A stretch of 55,419 nucleotides of DNA from Phyllobates terribilis (GCF_046119375.1 NW_027367729.1:1-55419), one strand, 5' to 3'; positions 10,170-30,792 are shown, numbered from the stretch's first letter. Notes: generated from the sequence alone by a model not told the origin. Translations and numbers: made by a program.

Positions 10170-10298
10170 CTACAAATAAGCAATAAAACTTTTGGAACCC
10201 ATCGAAGCTCCACTTTTCTGGGTGGATTAGCCTTCTGGTTAGTATTAGGAGAGGGGCTACGATCGAGTGGTGAGCGATGTTTAATACGTCGTAAATGG

Positions 10299-12830
10299 TG
10301 GTCGTTAGCATTGTTCATAGACGAAATCGCCATGCTTTGGAGTGTATTAGTGTATTCCGGACCTCACGAGTAAAATGTGTTAAACATGAGGAATACAAAC
10401 ATTTAGGTGAAGACCGAAGAGGAAACGACCAAAGGACAAAGCAAGTCGCGCACGCGAGAAAAAGTGATGAGATGTTGAGCTGAGTTCAGATGGCTCGTTC
10501 TCACTGATCCGATCTTCTATTGAGGTGATTCCAATTCGAGGAGTTAGATATTGAAATCTAATTGAAGCCCTCAAAATATGAGCTCAATCGTAGTTGTGAG
10601 TCAAAAGTGATGACGATTTTACGGATGTCTCTGTTTTGTAGAAACTAGGACGCAACCGCGCCCAGATAGGCGCGACCGCGCCCTGCTCACTGGGGAGGAC
10701 GCGATCGCGCCCTTAGAAGCGCAATCTCGTCGCCGTGGATTTTCAACCGCGAAATACTCTTCTCTTGCGGGATTGTTTTGGGCCTTTTTACCTAATTTCA
10801 CTTGGGCTTCAGGCTTGGGACTCCTTTAGGTTGTTTTTAGGGTTTCTCTCCTCTATAAATAAGGAGGAGAGCTTGCCTCTTTCACATGCTTAGTTCTAGG
10901 TTTAATTAGATAGTTTTAGGGAGATTATGTTGTTCTTCCAGGTGAAGCCTACGGATGGGCTGGTTTGTAGACTTTCTCCCTTGGTTCTAATAAAGAATAT
11001 ATCTCTTGAATTGTTTTAATCTCTTGCTTGTATTGTAAATTTATTGTGATTTGTTTATCTAGATTGACAACCTAGGTCTATAGATCTATTTCATATAGTT
11101 AGGTCCTGCTTTATCCTAATTGGAGAACTGTAGGAAATAACACGTTACCAAAGTTGAAAATACGTGTTTTGATCAGCTATTGTTCTCTGTCACTAAGGTT
11201 CATTAAGCCTTAGTTGCGCTTAACAAGGATTCAATTGCACTTTGAATGCTTGGCTTGCGCTTAACCTATGATGAACTATTAGTAATGAATTTACTAAAGT
11301 CCTTAAGTGCGGAAGAGGTTAGACAGACAATAAAGCGCACTTTAAGTTGTTAAAGCGCACCTATATTTGCACACACAAGAATTTCCAAACGGTGAGAACC
11401 CTAAGTCACTATCTGACTCGGGATAAAACTCACCACTACACTTGTATTGATTAAGAAGTGATTACAATCTCTCGCTTCAACACAAGAAGCTCACTCGTAA
11501 GCACTCTCTCAACAATACTCTCAGTTCAGCTCTGAAGAACAAAGGCACTCTCAACACTCTCTGATTACAAACGAAATATCTCTTAAGCTCTCTCTAGCTT
11601 CCTATATTCTCTACGTTTGCAATTCCTAGAGTGAATGAAATAGTACTCATTTATACACAAGTCTTAAGCTATACCTATAACTCAATTGTGTAACAAACAA
11701 AGACTAAACACAATGCCACCTCATCAATCTGTGTGCCTTGATCACTTCACCAGAATTAATCAACGGCTTGGAGTGAATTGGTTTTGTTCTTCATGTGTTG
11801 ATCCACGCCACATAAGCAATCCGTGTGCTTCAAGCTCTAACAAACTCTTGCCACACTGGCGATCCCTGGAGTAGCGTCCCAAAGAGTGTGAAGTTCTTCT
11901 CGCACCTTCCTGTGCACGCAACTTGCACTCTCCCGCTTTACCAGCCTTCGAAGCATGTAGATTTGTTCTCCTGCGCTCTGGCGCACCCTAAGCTTCAGTG
12001 GAACCTCGTGGTCAACTTTCTTCAACTTCATTCAAGCGCGTCTCTACGCCCTCGAAGCTCGATCACTCTTACTTCTTGGTCTTGAATGGATTTATTAAAC
12101 ACCGTTTGCGAAACTTACTTTCTCCGATTGGTGTTAAGCGCGACTGTGACCAGTCAAGCGCATCTCTAAGTGACTTAAGCGCATCCTTACAAATATGGCA
12201 ATGACCTGGAAGGCTTAAAAACACTAAAAGATCAAACATATTAGTTTGTTATCATCAAAACAAAGAGAAATAGATTAAGCTTTAACAAGATGATTAAAGC
12301 TCAACTAACAAGAACCTTGCCTACTTAATGGCACAAATCACTACTTGAACTAGTTGGGCTTGTGGGGATGTGGAGATTAATGAGGTGTTGCACCAAGGGC
12401 ATTGCACTTTCCTATCTATTCATGAACTCTATGTTGCCTAGGAGATAGTCTTGATAGTTTCAGGGCTAGATTTGTAGGTGTAAGGGCGTTATGACTAGTT
12501 GACTTAATTAGCCAATAAGGAACATGGATTAGGACAATCAGAATATATTAATTAATGGAATGAACCCGATTAGAAAATAGGAAGTCAATGATCAAACCAG
12601 CCATTCTGTAGTGCGAATCCGCGCTGAATAAGGTATTTTCTCAATTACTCTCCTCAATTGAATCATAGACTAGCATCAATCCAAATTCCTCATTTTTCTA
12701 TCTTTAATAAAGTTGACCTTATTAAATACATAATAATTGATAACTTGACTCTCTGTGGGATCGACCCTTGCTTACCACTCTACTTGTAGAGAAGTTAGTG
12801 AGGTTTATAAATGAATATCTTGACTCTACA
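10299..12830 (+). mobile_element. Ty3/Gypsy (Athila-like) solo LTR inserted in the gag of element A
   Basis: TG...CA ends and TSD AATGG/AACGG (one CpG-type change). It has a TATAAATA box near 10853 and the terminal GGGATCGACCCTTGCTTACCAC...GGTTTATAAAT motif. Removing it restores the gag frame. Confidence 0.8.
11269..12287 (-). mobile_element. Sirevirus-type solo LTR nested in the Gypsy solo LTR
   Basis: Shares AGTGCGGAA, GGTGAGAACCCTAA, ATAAACTCACCAC and the terminal GTTTGTTATCATCAAAAC...TTAACA with the element C LTR. No clean TSD was found, so the left end is uncertain by a few bp. Confidence 0.78.
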
Positions 12831-14670
12831 AACGGCGCTCGTCATCGATCCTTTGGCCTTTAGGTGAAGAGGCATGCTCTAAGTGAGAAGGATCATTCAA
12901 GCTACTCACTTCACACGTAGTGCGAGTGGGTGACCTGTATGGCTTATTACTTAGTGCTTGCTTCTTCTTGCAAGAGTGTATAGTGTAACCATTGTTACCA
13001 CAAAATCTGCACCATTCATTGTACTTCACATAACCATATTTGTCATTTCCAAGTCTAAAGGGCTTCCTACCCTTAATCTTGGGATCTAGTATGTTTTTTG
13101 CGTTCCCTTGGACTTGGCTCGCATATATCTTATGAGTCTTTTCCCCATGAAACCAGTAATTGTTATCCCCTAATGGTTGTTCAAGTGCTTTAACCTTTTT
13201 CTCTAAGAATGCATTCTTGCTTCTACAGATTTGAATGACCTTGTCTAAGGTTTCAACTTTTTCACTTAATTCTCTGTTGAGCTTTTCGTTAGCGCTCGAG
13301 CACTTAGAGGAATCTAGGTCATATCCTAATCTAGGTCTAGCCTTTACAAAGACAGTTTGGTTCACCGTTTTCTCATTGATGGATTCTGTTAATTTGGTGA
13401 TCTTCGCAAGAATTATCCCTAAGTCACTTTCTACCTTAGACTCCAAATCCTTTGACGCCCCCCCTTGAGGTTGCTTACCCTTGCAGCCCTCATAGGATTT
13501 CGTTATCAGACTCAGTTCTCTAGATTTTACTAAGGCCTTTTCTTTATTAGCTAACCTAGTGGACAAGTCTAGACATTCGCTACGTAGTTCAGTGACTTCC
13601 TCTTCGTATTCAGTAATTTGAGATTCTAAAGCTTCAGTATCTTCTAACAACCCTTTAATCATATTAATAAGGTCTTTTTTTTTCAAGCACGTTTAAACGA
13701 TTAGGAAATGTGTCAAGAGATTTTATCTTAGAGGCAAGGGCCTCTGCATTGGCCATGAGACATTGGCCTTGGAATCCTTCATGAAGGTCAACTTCATCAT
13801 CTTCTTCTCCCCATGTTGAGAATAACGCCTTCTTTTCGGTGGCTTCTACTTTTGTATTGGTGCACATCTTAGCAAGATGCCCCTTCTCCTGGCAATTATA
13901 GCACGTGTACTCCTTGAGATCACGCTTAGCCAAAGATGATGACTCTCCTGGTCCAACTCTCTTCTTAAACCACTTCTTTACCATCTTTGTCATGAGAGCG
14001 ACTTCTGTATCATCTTCCTCATCCTCTTCACCATCATTGATGTCCATCTTCTCAAGCACCTTTGTGAGCTTTAGTGCTATTCCAGTAGCTTCTTTTACTT
14101 TTAAGGCCCTTCAGTGGATCATCGTTCTCTTGATCAAAGAACTTGCCAAATATGTCAACTACTGGAAGCTTCTTGCAATATGGAGACATGAGCTCGATTC
14201 GTCGAGTGAGCTCGAATTTATCGCTCACAACGTAGATGACGGCCAGTGTCTGCACTGAAGGAGGAATGGTTACGCTAGAGGCAGTCAATTTGTTGATCAG
14301 AATTGTGAAGCGCGACTGGAAGGTTGACAAGCTTTCACCAGGAAGTTGTTTGAAAGACTGAAACTCCATTTGAAGCGTGAACTTCCTGGTATCCTTCTGG
14401 TCTTCGCTTCCTCTATGTATGGAGATGATAGCTTCCCACATATCTTTGGTCGTTTGTATGCCAATGACTTTGTCAATGTCCGTGCGAGTGAGTCCACGCA
14501 GAATCAGTTGTCGAGCTTTTGAGTTCTTCTCCATCTTGGGTTTGAATGAACGTCGTGTGCACTCCCAACCACCAATCAAGTTCTCCTTCTCGAAGCTGGT
14601 GAGGCTTGTTAAGGGACATGCCGAGGTTGAATTCCGAGTTCTTTATTGTCGTATTGAAATTGGATCCTGA

Positions 14671-14680
14671 TCTGATACCA
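14671..14680 (-). promoter_or_regulatory. Primer binding site (tRNA-iMet) of element A
   Basis: TGGTATCAGA lies 2 nt from the LTR end on the element strand. Confidence 0.92.
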
Positions 14681-14682
14681 AT

Positions 14683-15482
14683 TGTGGATCGTGAAGATCT
14701 TAGCCTTAACTAAAGATTGAAACTTTTATGCAGGAAAGTAAAGCTAAGAACAAGTAGACAATAATTCCCAAACGATTGTTGATTTGATTTCTCGTAGGGC
14801 TTACAACTATTAGGCGAACACACAGTTCTCAGTTTCTTTCTAAACTCTCCTAATTATTACCTATGTCCTAAATCAAGATGAACTCTCTCTCTCTGCGTGT
14901 TCAACAGCAACGTTTAATGGAAATGTCCTACACTATTTATACTATTGCATAATCACCGAGAACTAATTACCGAAAAGCATGATAATAATAATAAATAAAC
15001 TACTAAATCTAAAATAGGCGAGTATAATAACAAACTTGCTTCAACAAACAAGATCTCGAATCTGATTGATCTTTGTGAATCAAATCTTTCCTTTTATAGC
15101 GCCTTAAGAGATATCCTTCCTTTTATACGCGCTCGGTCCCGTTCAGTGTACTCGATTCCCTTGAGCACGTCCTCCTTGTATAATGCTCTGCTTCTCTAAT
15201 GCTCGATTCCTCACTCTTCTTACTCAGTTCCCTTCAGTAGCACTCGGTTCCCTTAATCATGGTTAAGCGTGTTAAGTGCTATCCTTCTAGCTGGACTCAC
15301 TCTTGTATCTTTACTTCAGCTCGTTGCTTTCCAAGCATAAACCACCTAATTAACACGAAGGACTATTGCTTTCCTGCGATATCTCACTCAATACACATAT
15401 TAGTACAAAAGACTATTTGTTATCATTAAAACTGAGACATTATTAGTTGTATGAACTAAGAGGTTAGTTCATATAACCATAA
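14683..15482 (-). repeat. 5' LTR of element A (800 bp)
   Basis: Homologous to 3005-4070. The terminus is mutated (ACCATAA vs ACCAACA) and is followed by TSD CTAAT. Confidence 0.93.
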
Positions 15483-24041: not shown

Positions 24042-24969
24042 TGTAGGATCGTTGATCTTTGCTTAAGTCGCGACTAGAGCGACCTTGTGGTCTCAAGTTA
24101 ACTTTGTTGATCGTAAGGATCTTTAATGTGCGGAAATAAACTTGAAGACACAATGTTCTGCAAACAAACTCGTATATTGCTTATCAATCCTAGTTACAGT
24201 CTAGTTTCATACACAATAAAACTTCTAAGTAAGCTAGATCTCTAAAGCACCTATACTACTCTCTCTCTCACGTTCACAAAGGCCTGGTTTCGCCTCTCTT
24301 CGTCAACACATGACGAAAATGCTATCTCTAATATATATAGACCATCTAACATCAGGTCTATAGAATCTACTCCTAAATCGAATCTCAACTGAATTGCAAC
24401 AAATAAATCTTCTAGTTATAGAAGATATAAAATAAAGAAGAAAATAAAACATATACTAAAAGATAATGTTTGTGCTAGATACTCATATCATTCCGTATCT
24501 AAGCAAATCTACTAAAACGTGAGAGACACGCTCTAGTCTCTTCCGATATTCTAAGTGCCGAAGGCAATGCGCTTTTCGTCTTATAGTCTTGAGGTCGCTT
24601 TGATGGTATATCGTCTGCAGCGACCTTCCAATGGCTTTCGCGACTATCTTCTATGTTTGGCACTAGTGTTCGTCGTTGATAAGTCTTTACAGCTTAGACT
24701 TTACAACATCTTATGTTAGGCAGATACTTGTCTGTGATTGTCGCGACCTTCTCTGTCATGGAAGCGACTTTTGGTATATAGTCGCGACCTCTGATTCATG
24801 CATAGCGACCTGCTCCTGATCATCGCGACTTGCTTTCCATGCTCTGGTCCACTCTATACGCTTCCTAAGTACCTGTACTGAGTAAACTCAATGTAGATGT
24901 TAAAAGCAAGTGTTTGTTATCATTAAAACTAGAGAAACTGAGGTAAAGCAATACTTGCTTGACCTAACA
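24042..24969 (-). repeat. 3' LTR of element B (928 bp)
   Basis: Runs TGTAGGATCG...CCTAACA and is followed by ATTTCCCCCTTTTT. Confidence 0.92.
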
Positions 24970-25419
24970 ATTTCCCCCTTTTTAATGATGACAAACTATA
25001 TAAGACATGGCATATATTTAAGGCAGCATGTTTAAAAGACTATTGAATCTTCTAATGTATGAACTTGTTTAGAGAAGCAGTGATAAGTAACACTTTACCT
25101 TGAGCAAGTCTCGCTTTGTGTTTCCATAGGTCGCTTCTTATGGTAATAGTTTCCCCTGACTTAAACAACCGGTATGCGAGGTCTATTCCCCCTTTTGACA
25201 TCATTGAAAAAGTCATGCATATATATGATTAGGGAACTAAGGCGGCTATCATGATCTACTCTCTAGAGGAATGATTGATAAGATACCTAAGCGAAAGGAA
25301 CTAAGTTATAACTAGGCAAGATAATAGAGCAAGTAGAGAAAAACGAGCAAAGCATACTTTTATATTCATTTCGACTACGCACCCAAAAAGCTACTGGCTA
25401 GATTAACCTAAGGAAGAGA

Positions 25420-27408: not shown

Positions 27409-28576
27409 TTCGGTGTGGAGTAGTGGTAGTGTTTAGGTAAAAGTTTGGGATTTGAGAGTAGCGACTAAGATTGAGAGAGTGGAGAGCAAGAAAATTTTGG
27501 CAGCGATATGAGAGAAGGTAGTGAAAGGGTATTATGTAGGTGAATGGGTCAGGAATTTATAGGGTTTGGATAGTCGGTGGTCGCTAACGGCTACTTTTCT
27601 TTAGTGGGAGGTAACGGCTATATTTCTTCAGCGAGCGGTAACGGCTACTTTTCGTGATTTTCAATGTGCGGCGCTGCAGACCTAGCCGTTGAGCTGATTA
27701 TTGTCAAGCGCTTCAGTTTAATTTTCTTACCGTTGAAGCTTGCTCATCGTTGAAGATATGCCAGGTATGGTCGCTATGGTAGCCACTGAAATATGGTGCG
27801 CGATACCCTTGTAGCGACGAAGCGACCTCTAAAGAGCACAAGCGATATCACAACATACCCAAAACACGCGTACCTGTTTAAGAATTAGCAACATAGAGGT
27901 CCTAATCTATTCACTCTCAGTCCTAGGTGGGGTAGACACATGCATACATTTAAAATTGAAGGACAAAAACACATAGAATAGTACATATGCATATGCAATT
28001 TGAAAATTAGGGTAGGACTTTAATATCAAGTGGATATTCCCAGTTGTGAGCTATGAGGGTCATAGGGAACGTTACACAAGATTAGGCTAGGGACACTTTA
28101 TAATCACATATCATATCTCGTTGGGCTTTGTAATGGGCTAAGAAGCGATCAATGTGATTATGTTCATAGGATTTCAAAGAAGAGCATGCAGGTCCATAAT
28201 TTCTAGCAAGATCTATTAAGTCGCGTAGATTCACCTAATTATTTCACAAAGGCATCAACCAGAGCATGCGAGAGACTAAAGCTAATGCTAAAGTTTGCCA
28301 GTCATTTCAAGCGAGTCCTAAGTTCCCAATATCAATATATAAGCAGATAGTTCTAGTCAGAGTAGAGGGAACTTACAGACGTAGGTCGCTTAAGTGAAGG
28401 GGATCATTCCCAGAAGGAGCCTTAGATTGACAAATTGATCCTTGTTCAAGGCTTTGGTGAAGATATCCGTCACTTGCTCTTCAGTTCTACAATGAGTTAA
28501 TTCAATATTTCTTGAAGCCTGTCATGTGGCAAGAGCAGCCATTGTCTAACTACCGTCGTTCCTTAGCACTTCCAAC

Positions 28577-30756
28577 CTACGCAAGAAAAATTCAAACTTT
28601 TGGTACCCAGTGAAGCTCAGCTTGACTGGGTGAATAGTATCGTGGCTCCTTTGGAGCGTGTCCCATCAGCATGAATGATATTGAAGGTCATGGGAGCAGT
28701 TTCATAGGATTCATTATGATTAGAGTTGATCCTAGCGTTCTGTTTTATCTTTGATCCTAGCGTTCTAGGTTTAGCATGTTGATTTGCTTGAGTTTGATAT
28801 GTCTGATGAATGTTCTGATGTCGCTGGTGATAATTATCATATCGCTTGGTATGATTTGAAGGTCGCTGGTGTTGGTACTGAGGTCGCGATGATTCATGTT
28901 CATGAGCAACATCTTTGCAAGGAGAAACATAAGGCTTGTTGTCACGAGCCTGTTTCTTCTTACAGTTATAGATTGTATGACCATTGAAACCACAGTATCT
29001 ACACCAGTCGTAATAGATCACTCGCCCATATTTTCCACGTCCTGGTCTAAAGGGCTTTGCATTTTTGGTGCACCCCTTGACCTCGTGAGTCCTTGGGCTT
29101 GTGATACATACATGGCATTAGCTTTTCCCCATGATACCATTTTGACTTATGTTGGGGTTTTCCAAGACTTTCACTTTGTCTTCTAAGAACTCATTCTTGC
29201 TTTTACAAGTTTGAAGAGCCTTATCCAACACGTCAGCCTTTTCAGCGAGTTCCTTGGCTAATTTCTCATGCATGGATGAGGATTTAACATTATCATCAGA
29301 TTCATAGCCAAGCCCTCTCGCTTTAACAAACACTGTTTGATTAATTGATCGCTTTTCAATTAGGGATGCGATACCAGCGACATCAAGGATGACCCTTTTT
29401 ATTAGGTCATTAGTTTCAAGTAGGCTTTCGCTTGCCATAGAAACATGAGTGGGCGCTTGTGTAGACGCTTTAGTAAGCGCTTTACCTTTGCATCCCAAAC
29501 ACTCCTTGGTTAACAAGGTTGTTTCTTTAGCCTTTTGAAAGTCTATCTCTTTATTTGCTAGCCTAGTAGATAAATCTAAACATTCAGCATGAAGATCTTC
29601 TATTTCCTTTTCATAGCTATCATTTTCAGTTTGTAGTCGCTCGCTCTCTTCTATTATTCCTAGAATTATATTGATTAAATCAGGTTTATCAAGCATGTGA
29701 ATCTTTTAGTGAAGCTATTAGGAAGAGAGATTGATACCTCGGGAGTCTTCAGAACTTTGTTCTCCAGCCATTAGACATAAGCCTGTGAACCCTTCATGTA
29801 AGTCTGCATCATCATCATCATCTCCCCATGCAGAAGTGGTCACAAGTGCCTTCTTTTCAAATTGCTCAACCTTTGGCTTGGTGCAGTCTCTTGCTAGATG
29901 CCCCTTTTGCTGGCAATTGTAGCAGGTGTAGCTGTTGAGGTCGCGTTGGGGGTCAGATGAGGAGGGTAAGGTTCCTTTCTCGTTTTTTTAAGAATCGCTT
30001 GACCATCTTGGTCATTAAGACTACGTCTTTATCATCATCTTCTTCTTCGTCTTGGTTCTCCATCCTGTCTAGAGCTTTTGACAACTTCAAGTGACTTGTT
30101 TTGTGTCGCTTCCTCTTGTCAAAGATCTCAGCTTGTCGCCTTGTTCTTGATCATAGAACTTCCCAAAGATCTTGGCTACTGGAAGAGCTTTGGGTTTCTT
30201 CAGACATTAAGGCTATACTCCTAGCCATTTCAAATTTGTCGCTCATAGCATGTATGACAACGAGTGTCTTCTAATACTCTGGGATGATGTGACCAGCAAT
30301 GGTTAGCTTATCTGTGAGCACGAAGAATCGCGACTGGCAATCAAGGACGCTTTCATTCTCAAGTTGTCTGAAGGCATGAAACTCGCGTTGTAACACGAAT
30401 TCCTGTTGTGCTTCATGTCTTCACTTCCTCTATGAATGAATATGATTGTATCCCAGATTTCCTTGACAGTAGGGAGACTTTTTACCTTGTCAACATCATG
30501 GCGTTGTAGGCCGACGAAGATCATCTGGCGAGCTTTGGCATTTAACTTTGATTTTCCTGTAGTAGGCAGCGTCCATCGCGCTTCTGGTGATATCTTCAGG
30601 GACTTCTTCATCTCCTAATTCGATGACGTTCCAACATTGAGCGTCCATCTGCTTGATCCAAGTCTTGTGCATTTCGATCCACCAGTCGAGTTCTCCTTCC
30701 TTTAGTAGAGGTGGCTTGTTGAGAGTTTGTCTGTGAGTTGGAGTTGAGGAAGACAT
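28577..30756 (-). pseudogene. Extended gag of element B, frameshifted
   Basis: LNKPPLLKEGELDWW, EIWDTIIFIHRGSED, knuckle CYNCQQKGHLARDC, CLMA, coiled coil, second knuckle CRYCGFNGHTIYNC, and ELHWVPKV*. Confidence 0.88.
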
Positions 30757-30792
30757 GGTGGATTACAGAATGGTTCCTGCTCTGATACCAAT

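Follow-up and report, generated by a model that had tools for sequence, protein, structure and literature searches.

The Gag extension of the two-ORF Sireviruses studied here is likely to be a retained spliceosomal intron bounded by GT and AG, the occasional removal of which would yield a Gag-Pol message. The splice signals, the in-frame join and the exact and repeated loss of the segment are all observed in DNA, and from these we infer the part played by the spliceosome. Single-ORF Sireviruses exist as well (PMC2829016, in the text available), and the splicing claim therefore concerns the two-ORF members. How these express Pol has been called a puzzle, for which bypass or internal ribosome entry has been proposed in the accessible parts of the literature (PMC5009743, PMC2829016).

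Two Sirevirus elements in the window

The window, which is the whole stretch of 55,419 nt of DNA that was analysed, contains two decayed Sirevirus (SIRE) copia elements, both on the minus strand. Element A spans ~15481 to 2999 and element B ~31500 to 24042. In each, a primer-binding site, the gag core with its zinc knuckle and the CLMA motif are followed by a long gag extension running to WVPKV, and the protease motif lies in a frame of its own. The features are as follows, with exons and introns as predicted.

Element A
14683-15481, minus strand: 5′ LTR (approximate start), 90-94% identical to 2999-4067 and ending 2 nt before the primer-binding site
14669-14680, minus strand: primer-binding site
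13727-14619, minus strand: predicted exon 1, with gag core, first zinc knuckle and CLMA at 13762-13751 (PF14223, PF00098); the frame is broken here
13721-13729, minus strand: predicted 5′ splice-site position, intron start 13726, decayed here; GT in the other 28 mapped copies
10170-13726, minus strand: predicted intron, corresponding to the coding Gag extension with its coiled coil, second knuckle and terminal WVPKV; exactly removed in 9 family copies
10268-12844, strand not given: unrelated nested insert with TG...CA ends and a near-match 5-bp target duplication; not present in those relatives, 72 of 99, whose intron is intact
10197-10230, minus strand: branch-point-like CTAAT (10230-10226), then the position of the gag-end hairpin (10223-10197), which is weak in family A
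10170-10202, minus strand: pol-frame ATG (10202), T-rich tract and predicted acceptor YAG (10172-10170)
8813-10169, minus strand: start of predicted exon 2, with protease motif (W at 10145), integrase and broken frames (PF13976, PF00665, PF25597)
2999-4070, minus strand: 3′ LTR, rearranged; three AGGGGGA(A/G) tracts before the LTR at 4252, 4216 and 4156

Element B
29738-30756, minus strand: predicted exon 1, with gag core, knuckle and CLMA at 29777-29766; primer-binding site at 30790
28577-29737, minus strand: predicted intron, the coding Gag extension, GT...AG; 1161 nt here and 1158 in most copies; exactly removed in 3 family copies and in one contig of run X2
29660-29662, minus strand: possible second, proximal acceptor, 79 nt past the donor in L003 and followed by a stop; a single genomic copy, L275, joins the donor there
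28605-28641, minus strand: 27-nt gag-end hairpin (28631-28605), preceded by a branch-point-like motif that reads CTAAT in most copies and is decayed in this one
28520-28576, minus strand: start of predicted exon 2, the protease N-terminus, then deletion of most of pol
24042-24970, minus strand: 3′ LTR; polypurine tracts at 25193 and 24979

The Ty1/copia order of gag, protease, integrase and RVT_2-type reverse transcriptase is found in the family A copy L133 (PF14223, PF00098, PF22936, PF13976, PF00665, then PF07727), and gag and integrase domains are present in element A of the window. Sirevirus traits are likewise evident in the extended gag with a central CCHC knuckle and a downstream coiled coil (the coiled coil read from the sequence alone), in the inverted repeat at the gag/pol boundary and in several identical polypurine tracts before the 3′ LTR, three in A and two in B. 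An extra ORF follows pol in 74% of Sirevirus members; the ORFs of B at 27432-26533 and beyond gave no Pfam match, and tandem 27-nt repeats lie upstream of this candidate extra ORF at 27585-27653, where repeated motifs are described for Sireviruses. The knuckle and extension, the gag-end hairpin and the multiple polypurine tracts fit the Sirevirus description as far as it is given in the available text of PMC2829016.

The nested insert in A (12844-10268) is 2577 nt long, matches at four of the five target-duplication bases and is probably a solo LTR, with an inner second LTR-like insert seemingly starting at 12310. The 3′ LTR of A (2999-3672) contains an inverted piece of the 5′ LTR, primer-binding site and gag start, and the 5′ LTR of B (32096-30793) looks chimeric, an A-type part being joined to a B-type part at ~31555. 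Most of pol is missing from the window copy of B and from its 29 relatives in the comparison of 30 loci. Family B appears mostly in this non-autonomous form, in which the protease start jumps to the RNase H end (28520-28400 in the window; L002-L030), a stop follows directly after the protease W in most copies, and the long gag and both splice sites are kept. Matches to both families all lie on small contigs (C2702-C7993) and none on the giant contigs (54 and 64 matches for B, and 100 for A among the matches listed). The window is likely to be plant DNA inside an animal assembly, and a plant origin would explain the absence of the elements from RNA runs of the same label; three such runs, presumed to be RNA, gave no alignment, which speaks neither for nor against splicing.

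Splice signals in the two element families

The features of a U2 intron are all present: a GT donor, a branch-point-like motif, a T-rich tract and a YAG acceptor. The positions proposed for these sites in a first-pass annotation of the window, namely the acceptor G at 10170 and the donor-site base at 13726 in A and the acceptor G at 28577 and the donor G at 29737 in B, were all found where that annotation had placed them. It had also suggested that conservation of GT and AG be scored across intact Sireviruses, and for copies of the two families this was done at 30 loci of 41 matches each, L055 of family A being unmapped.

In family B the GT donor and the AG acceptor are present at 30/30 loci and the join is in phase 0 at 29, the window copy being the sole one out of register. 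As the copies of family B are 95-96% alike, the constancy of GT and AG in this family counts for little when taken by itself. Of the 29 mapped copies of family A, 28 have a GT donor and the exception is the window copy, which bears out the suggestion that its AAG|ATAAAA is a decayed donor; 26 of 28 copies join in phase 0. The acceptor had been described as TAG in both elements. An AG acceptor is indeed present in both families, and in family A, where 24 of 28 copies have AG, the triplet is usually CAG (19 copies), with TAG in 4 and GAG in 1 (non-AG: CAA in 3, CTG in 1). In both families the predicted join reads CLMA, 16 amino acids and the protease W, in agreement with the phase-0 fusion of CLMA, about 16 residues and protease motif that had been anticipated. 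The boundaries given for the A intron (10170..13726) also stand, and its span needs revision: the 3557 nt in the window copy include the nested insert, and the family intron without it is ~972-976 nt.

The gag extension after the knuckle amounts to 320 codons in A and 381 in B. At the gag stop the families differ: B has pol in frame 0, with two stops ahead of it, and A has pol in frame +2. The pol frame had been reported to lack an ATG. This holds for family B, in which none of 38 copies has a pol-frame ATG open into the protease, and fails for family A, where 40 of the 50 parsed copies have such an ATG, 33 nt before the acceptor end, with an open frame into the protease. The gag-end hairpin of 27 nt reaches -14.5 kcal/mol for the folded segment in L003 of family B and is weak (-4.6) in the family A copy L033.

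Related plant loci and recoding as an alternative

Scanning of metagenome contigs gave 25 further loci. Since the search pattern demanded YAG, the presence of YAG in these is circular, and the phase, the donor and the branch motif are not; a version of the pattern free of YAG matched 0 viral contigs, so that the circularity stands. Together with one copy each of A and B these make 27 loci (three further family copies were unparsed), which include near-duplicates, ~10 lineages by eye, and decayed copies with a possibly altered frame class. The first AG past the gag stop is in the pol phase in 27/27, with pol in frame 0 relative to gag in 4, +1 in 12 and +2 in 11. CTRAY is found 54-60 nt before the acceptor, directly upstream of the hairpin, in 21/27; the codon overlapped by this branch-like motif varies (Thr, Ala, Ser) and CTAA is constant. 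The hairpin itself is conserved, and one of its pairs differs between family B and L084. Seven loci have a CLMA-like motif with an extension, and in all seven a GTA stands in phase 0, 8-12 codons on, as RAG|GTA in six. Four long gag frames, of 282-822 codons, contain no in-frame AG|GTA besides this one, and just three others were counted in 3201 codons.

The WVPK-stop pattern had 680 matches in the same genome against 393 in the control, and the protease motif was found in 0 of the first 30 loci, an uninformative outcome. A word-based protein search returned 1 match and a profile search 150 proteins; 25 of 151 were parsed for the protease motif, 8 with a knuckle within 110 aa. In six of these eight, one of them a Cuscuta gene model, the protease W is preceded at 20-25 aa by an LMA-like motif. 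Such knuckle-protease proteins, the Cuscuta model included, may be predicted splices or intronless copies and give the junction weak support. In P0097 and P0124 the late knuckle runs straight into the protease without the CLMA motif, and these may be single-ORF Sireviruses in which this intron is not used.

The same boundary has been interpreted as a site of recoding. Pol would then be made from unspliced RNA at the gag-end hairpin, by bypass, internal entry or frameshift, or in family A by reinitiation at the pol-frame ATG, and splicing would be a side reaction that leaves behind the intronless copies described below. This is a published hypothesis (in the parts available of PMC2829016 and PMC5009743), the conserved hairpin, with its changed pair, speaks for it, and the ATG open in most family A copies is a point against splicing in that Pol could also start there. 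However, all three frames are represented in the position of pol after the gag stop, family B presents two in-frame stops and no ATG, and no Met occurs between the last stop and the protease W in the pol-frame translations examined. Recoding also leaves the conserved in-phase donor 0.5-1.2 kb upstream unexplained. We consider recoding unlikely, and infer that the spliced RNA is the main route to Pol.

Genomic copies lacking the donor-to-acceptor segment

If spliced RNA is sometimes copied back, then copies without the segment should exist. The exact loss of the sequence from donor to acceptor was found in 12 genomic copies, 9 in family A and 3 in family B, and these support at the DNA level the splicing to a short Gag-Pol that had been put forward for the window. 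Short gapped junction patterns had 10 matches, of which 5 family A and 2 family B copies are joined at the predicted junction; L118, L119 and L123 were dropped as chance matches. Among the family A joins, L116 is one base short and L159 has two changed bases after the join.

Another survey used exon 1 as its only anchor and was thereby blind to the downstream sequence. It covered 99 family A loci, from the first 100 of 125 matches with the window copy omitted, and all 54 family B loci. The intron is kept in 72 of the A loci and exactly lost in 4; 13 have other indels, 8 are truncated and 2 are at a contig end. The corresponding figures for B are 42 kept, 3 exactly lost (2 already known from the junction patterns), 6 with other indels and 3 cut short. 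Seven other deletions examined in or at the A extension are each unique and none has GT..AG ends.

The same joint was met outside this assembly. Run X2, of unstated type and belonging to another study, includes a contig in which these 1158 bases are skipped between GT..AG ends. This joint is the deepest of three; its short side is 28 letters, below the tool's bar of 31. Contigs aligned to the window copy of B, which differs beside the donor, gave 10 joints and none at the intron. Two genomic copies use the donor differently. In L275 it is joined to an AG that lies 79 nt further along and precedes a stop, and in L066, less surely, to a point 6 nt short of WVPK at which AAG is found in some relatives; each join would, from its sequence, yield a short Gag.

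Both ends of the junction share AG|G(T), a microhomology of 3-4 nt (4 ambiguous letters at the X2 joint), at which reverse-transcriptase template switching or DNA repair could have deleted the segment, and other deletions are common in these copies. Splice junctions often show such short microhomology. The region offers 8129 equal or better repeat pairs in B (at least 4 nt) and 23887 in A (at least 3 nt), including 43 and 40, respectively, of at least 8 nt, yet only this pair recurs, and it does so in two families whose gag is ~65% alike. It recurs, too, in a copy with pol deleted, which gains nothing from the fusion. An origin by deletion is thus very improbable. That the intronless copies are assembly artefacts or cDNA contamination is hardly credible: the contigs do not belong with the main assembly and are small and prone to error, yet the copies lie within 37-62 kb contigs with flanks of their own, aged LTR pairs (88.6-98.3%) and private mutations, and the joint is repeated in the contig from the other study.

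Origin of the intronless copies

The loss appears to have happened repeatedly. The first five intronless A copies require 5 changes on the gag tree and on the pol tree, and their union in one clade is rejected (p-AU 1.4e-46 and 0.0058, respectively). For all nine, the pol tree needs 6 changes, at least 4 of them forced. Five copies (L116, L148, L156, L159 and L197) cluster with one intron-bearing copy; some of these may descend from one event, in which case an extension-less, spliced lineage may have multiplied. Intronless B copies occur in both the pol-deleted and the pol-bearing types.

Seven intronless copies were examined over 10 kb, and LTR pairs were found in four (88.6, 92.7, 98.2 and 98.3%), a partial pair in one and none in range in two. 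The copy with the 98.3% pair, L133, has a perfect 5-bp target duplication and carries gag, knuckle, protease and integrase in a single 858-aa frame. Elsewhere the duplication matches at 4/5 bases in L132, and there is no match in L126 and L128. Because of the LTR pairs and the target duplication, the intronless copies look, as judged from their sequence, like retrotransposed spliced RNAs.

Proposed route to Gag-Pol

According to the splicing reading, the unspliced RNA would serve as the genome and as message for a long Gag ending in WVPKx-stop. In the spliced RNA, a donor 8-13 codons past the start of CLMA would be joined to a YAG 14-20 nt past the gag stop, and the gag core would be fused in frame to the protease, as it is in the genomic copies. 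The resulting Gag-Pol would be without the coiled coil and the second knuckle, and inefficient splicing, or intron retention, would keep the long Gag in excess. The gag-end hairpin may shorten the distance between the CTAAY branch point and the acceptor from 54-60 nt to ~30 nt and conceal AGs that lie closer. The spliced RNA would keep the primer-binding site and polypurine tract and could sometimes be reverse-transcribed and inserted.

We lean, with some caution, towards a wider form of the same proposal. In all two-ORF Sireviruses, of monocots and dicots, the coding Gag extension would be spliced out to give Gag-Pol, the conserved UAG would be the splice acceptor, the hairpin would tune the use of the branch point, alternative acceptors would give short Gag, and captured spliced RNAs would keep founding single-frame, extension-less lineages.

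Comparison with known systems

The donor after the gag core, and a Gag:Pol ratio that would be set by alternative splicing, are shared with EVADE/Arabidopsis copia, BARE1 and Drosophila copia as these are described in the available text of PMC5580714. In those elements the spliced RNA encodes Gag only and the unspliced RNA Gag-Pol, whereas here the roles would be reversed and the intron codes for the Gag tail; the first-pass annotation had likewise called the logic opposite to that of known copia splicing. An EVADE-type intron removes the protease and leaves a stop after gag; the main intron here stops short of the protease and its removal keeps the frame, and only L275 and L066 resemble short-Gag products. 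As in Ogre of Ty3/gypsy, a retained intron would be removed in some transcripts to give the full polyprotein (PMC6317226, in the part available). Unlike here, Ogre is a gypsy element with a short spacer of ~274 bp between GAG-PROT and RT, and not a coding extension of 320-380 codons before the protease (PMC6317226). Foamy virus also makes Pol from spliced RNA, but its Pro-Pol is made without Gag, in contrast to the fusion of Gag core and Pol predicted here (PMC2194720, in the text available). A hairpin between branch point and acceptor that shortens the distance and hides cryptic AGs has been demonstrated in yeast introns (PMC12350175, in the text available) and is proposed here by analogy.

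The literature on two-ORF Sireviruses has a conserved UAG that is here read as a YAG 3′ splice site with a matching donor, and pol frames 0 and +2 were found here besides +1. A search of the literature, with most subscription papers outside it and prior mention possible, found no report of Sirevirus gag-pol splicing. We take ATCOPIA58 to be a Sirevirus. Table S2 of Oberlin 2017 lists one ENDOVIR1 copy and 2/3 ATCOPIA58 copies as unspliced, and one ATCOPIA58 copy with an annotated intron of 458 nt (PMC5580714, in the part available). The unspliced listings would count against the splicing reading if these copies have the two-ORF layout. In its available portion, a 2025 review names only Ogre, EVADE and BARE1 as spliced plant elements (PMC12786077).

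Significance

Sireviruses make up ~21% of the maize genome (PMC3599292, in the text available), and in 2016 the expression of Pol by their two-ORF members was still listed as an open puzzle in the accessible part of PMC5009743. The feature itself is real, and on the DNA data presented here it is likely to be a coding, retained intron controlling Gag-Pol in two-ORF Sireviruses. The splicing reading would answer a 20-year-old puzzle of enzyme expression in a very common plant element. One ordinary mechanism would account for the conserved UAG, for pol frames that vary and for the hairpin. It would reverse the known copia logic, and it predicts exact junctions that can be searched for in existing RNA data. 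Annotation should accordingly treat the 'frameshift' as an intron, and the Gag-Pol protein of these elements would be without the extension that is reported to bind dynein light chain 8.
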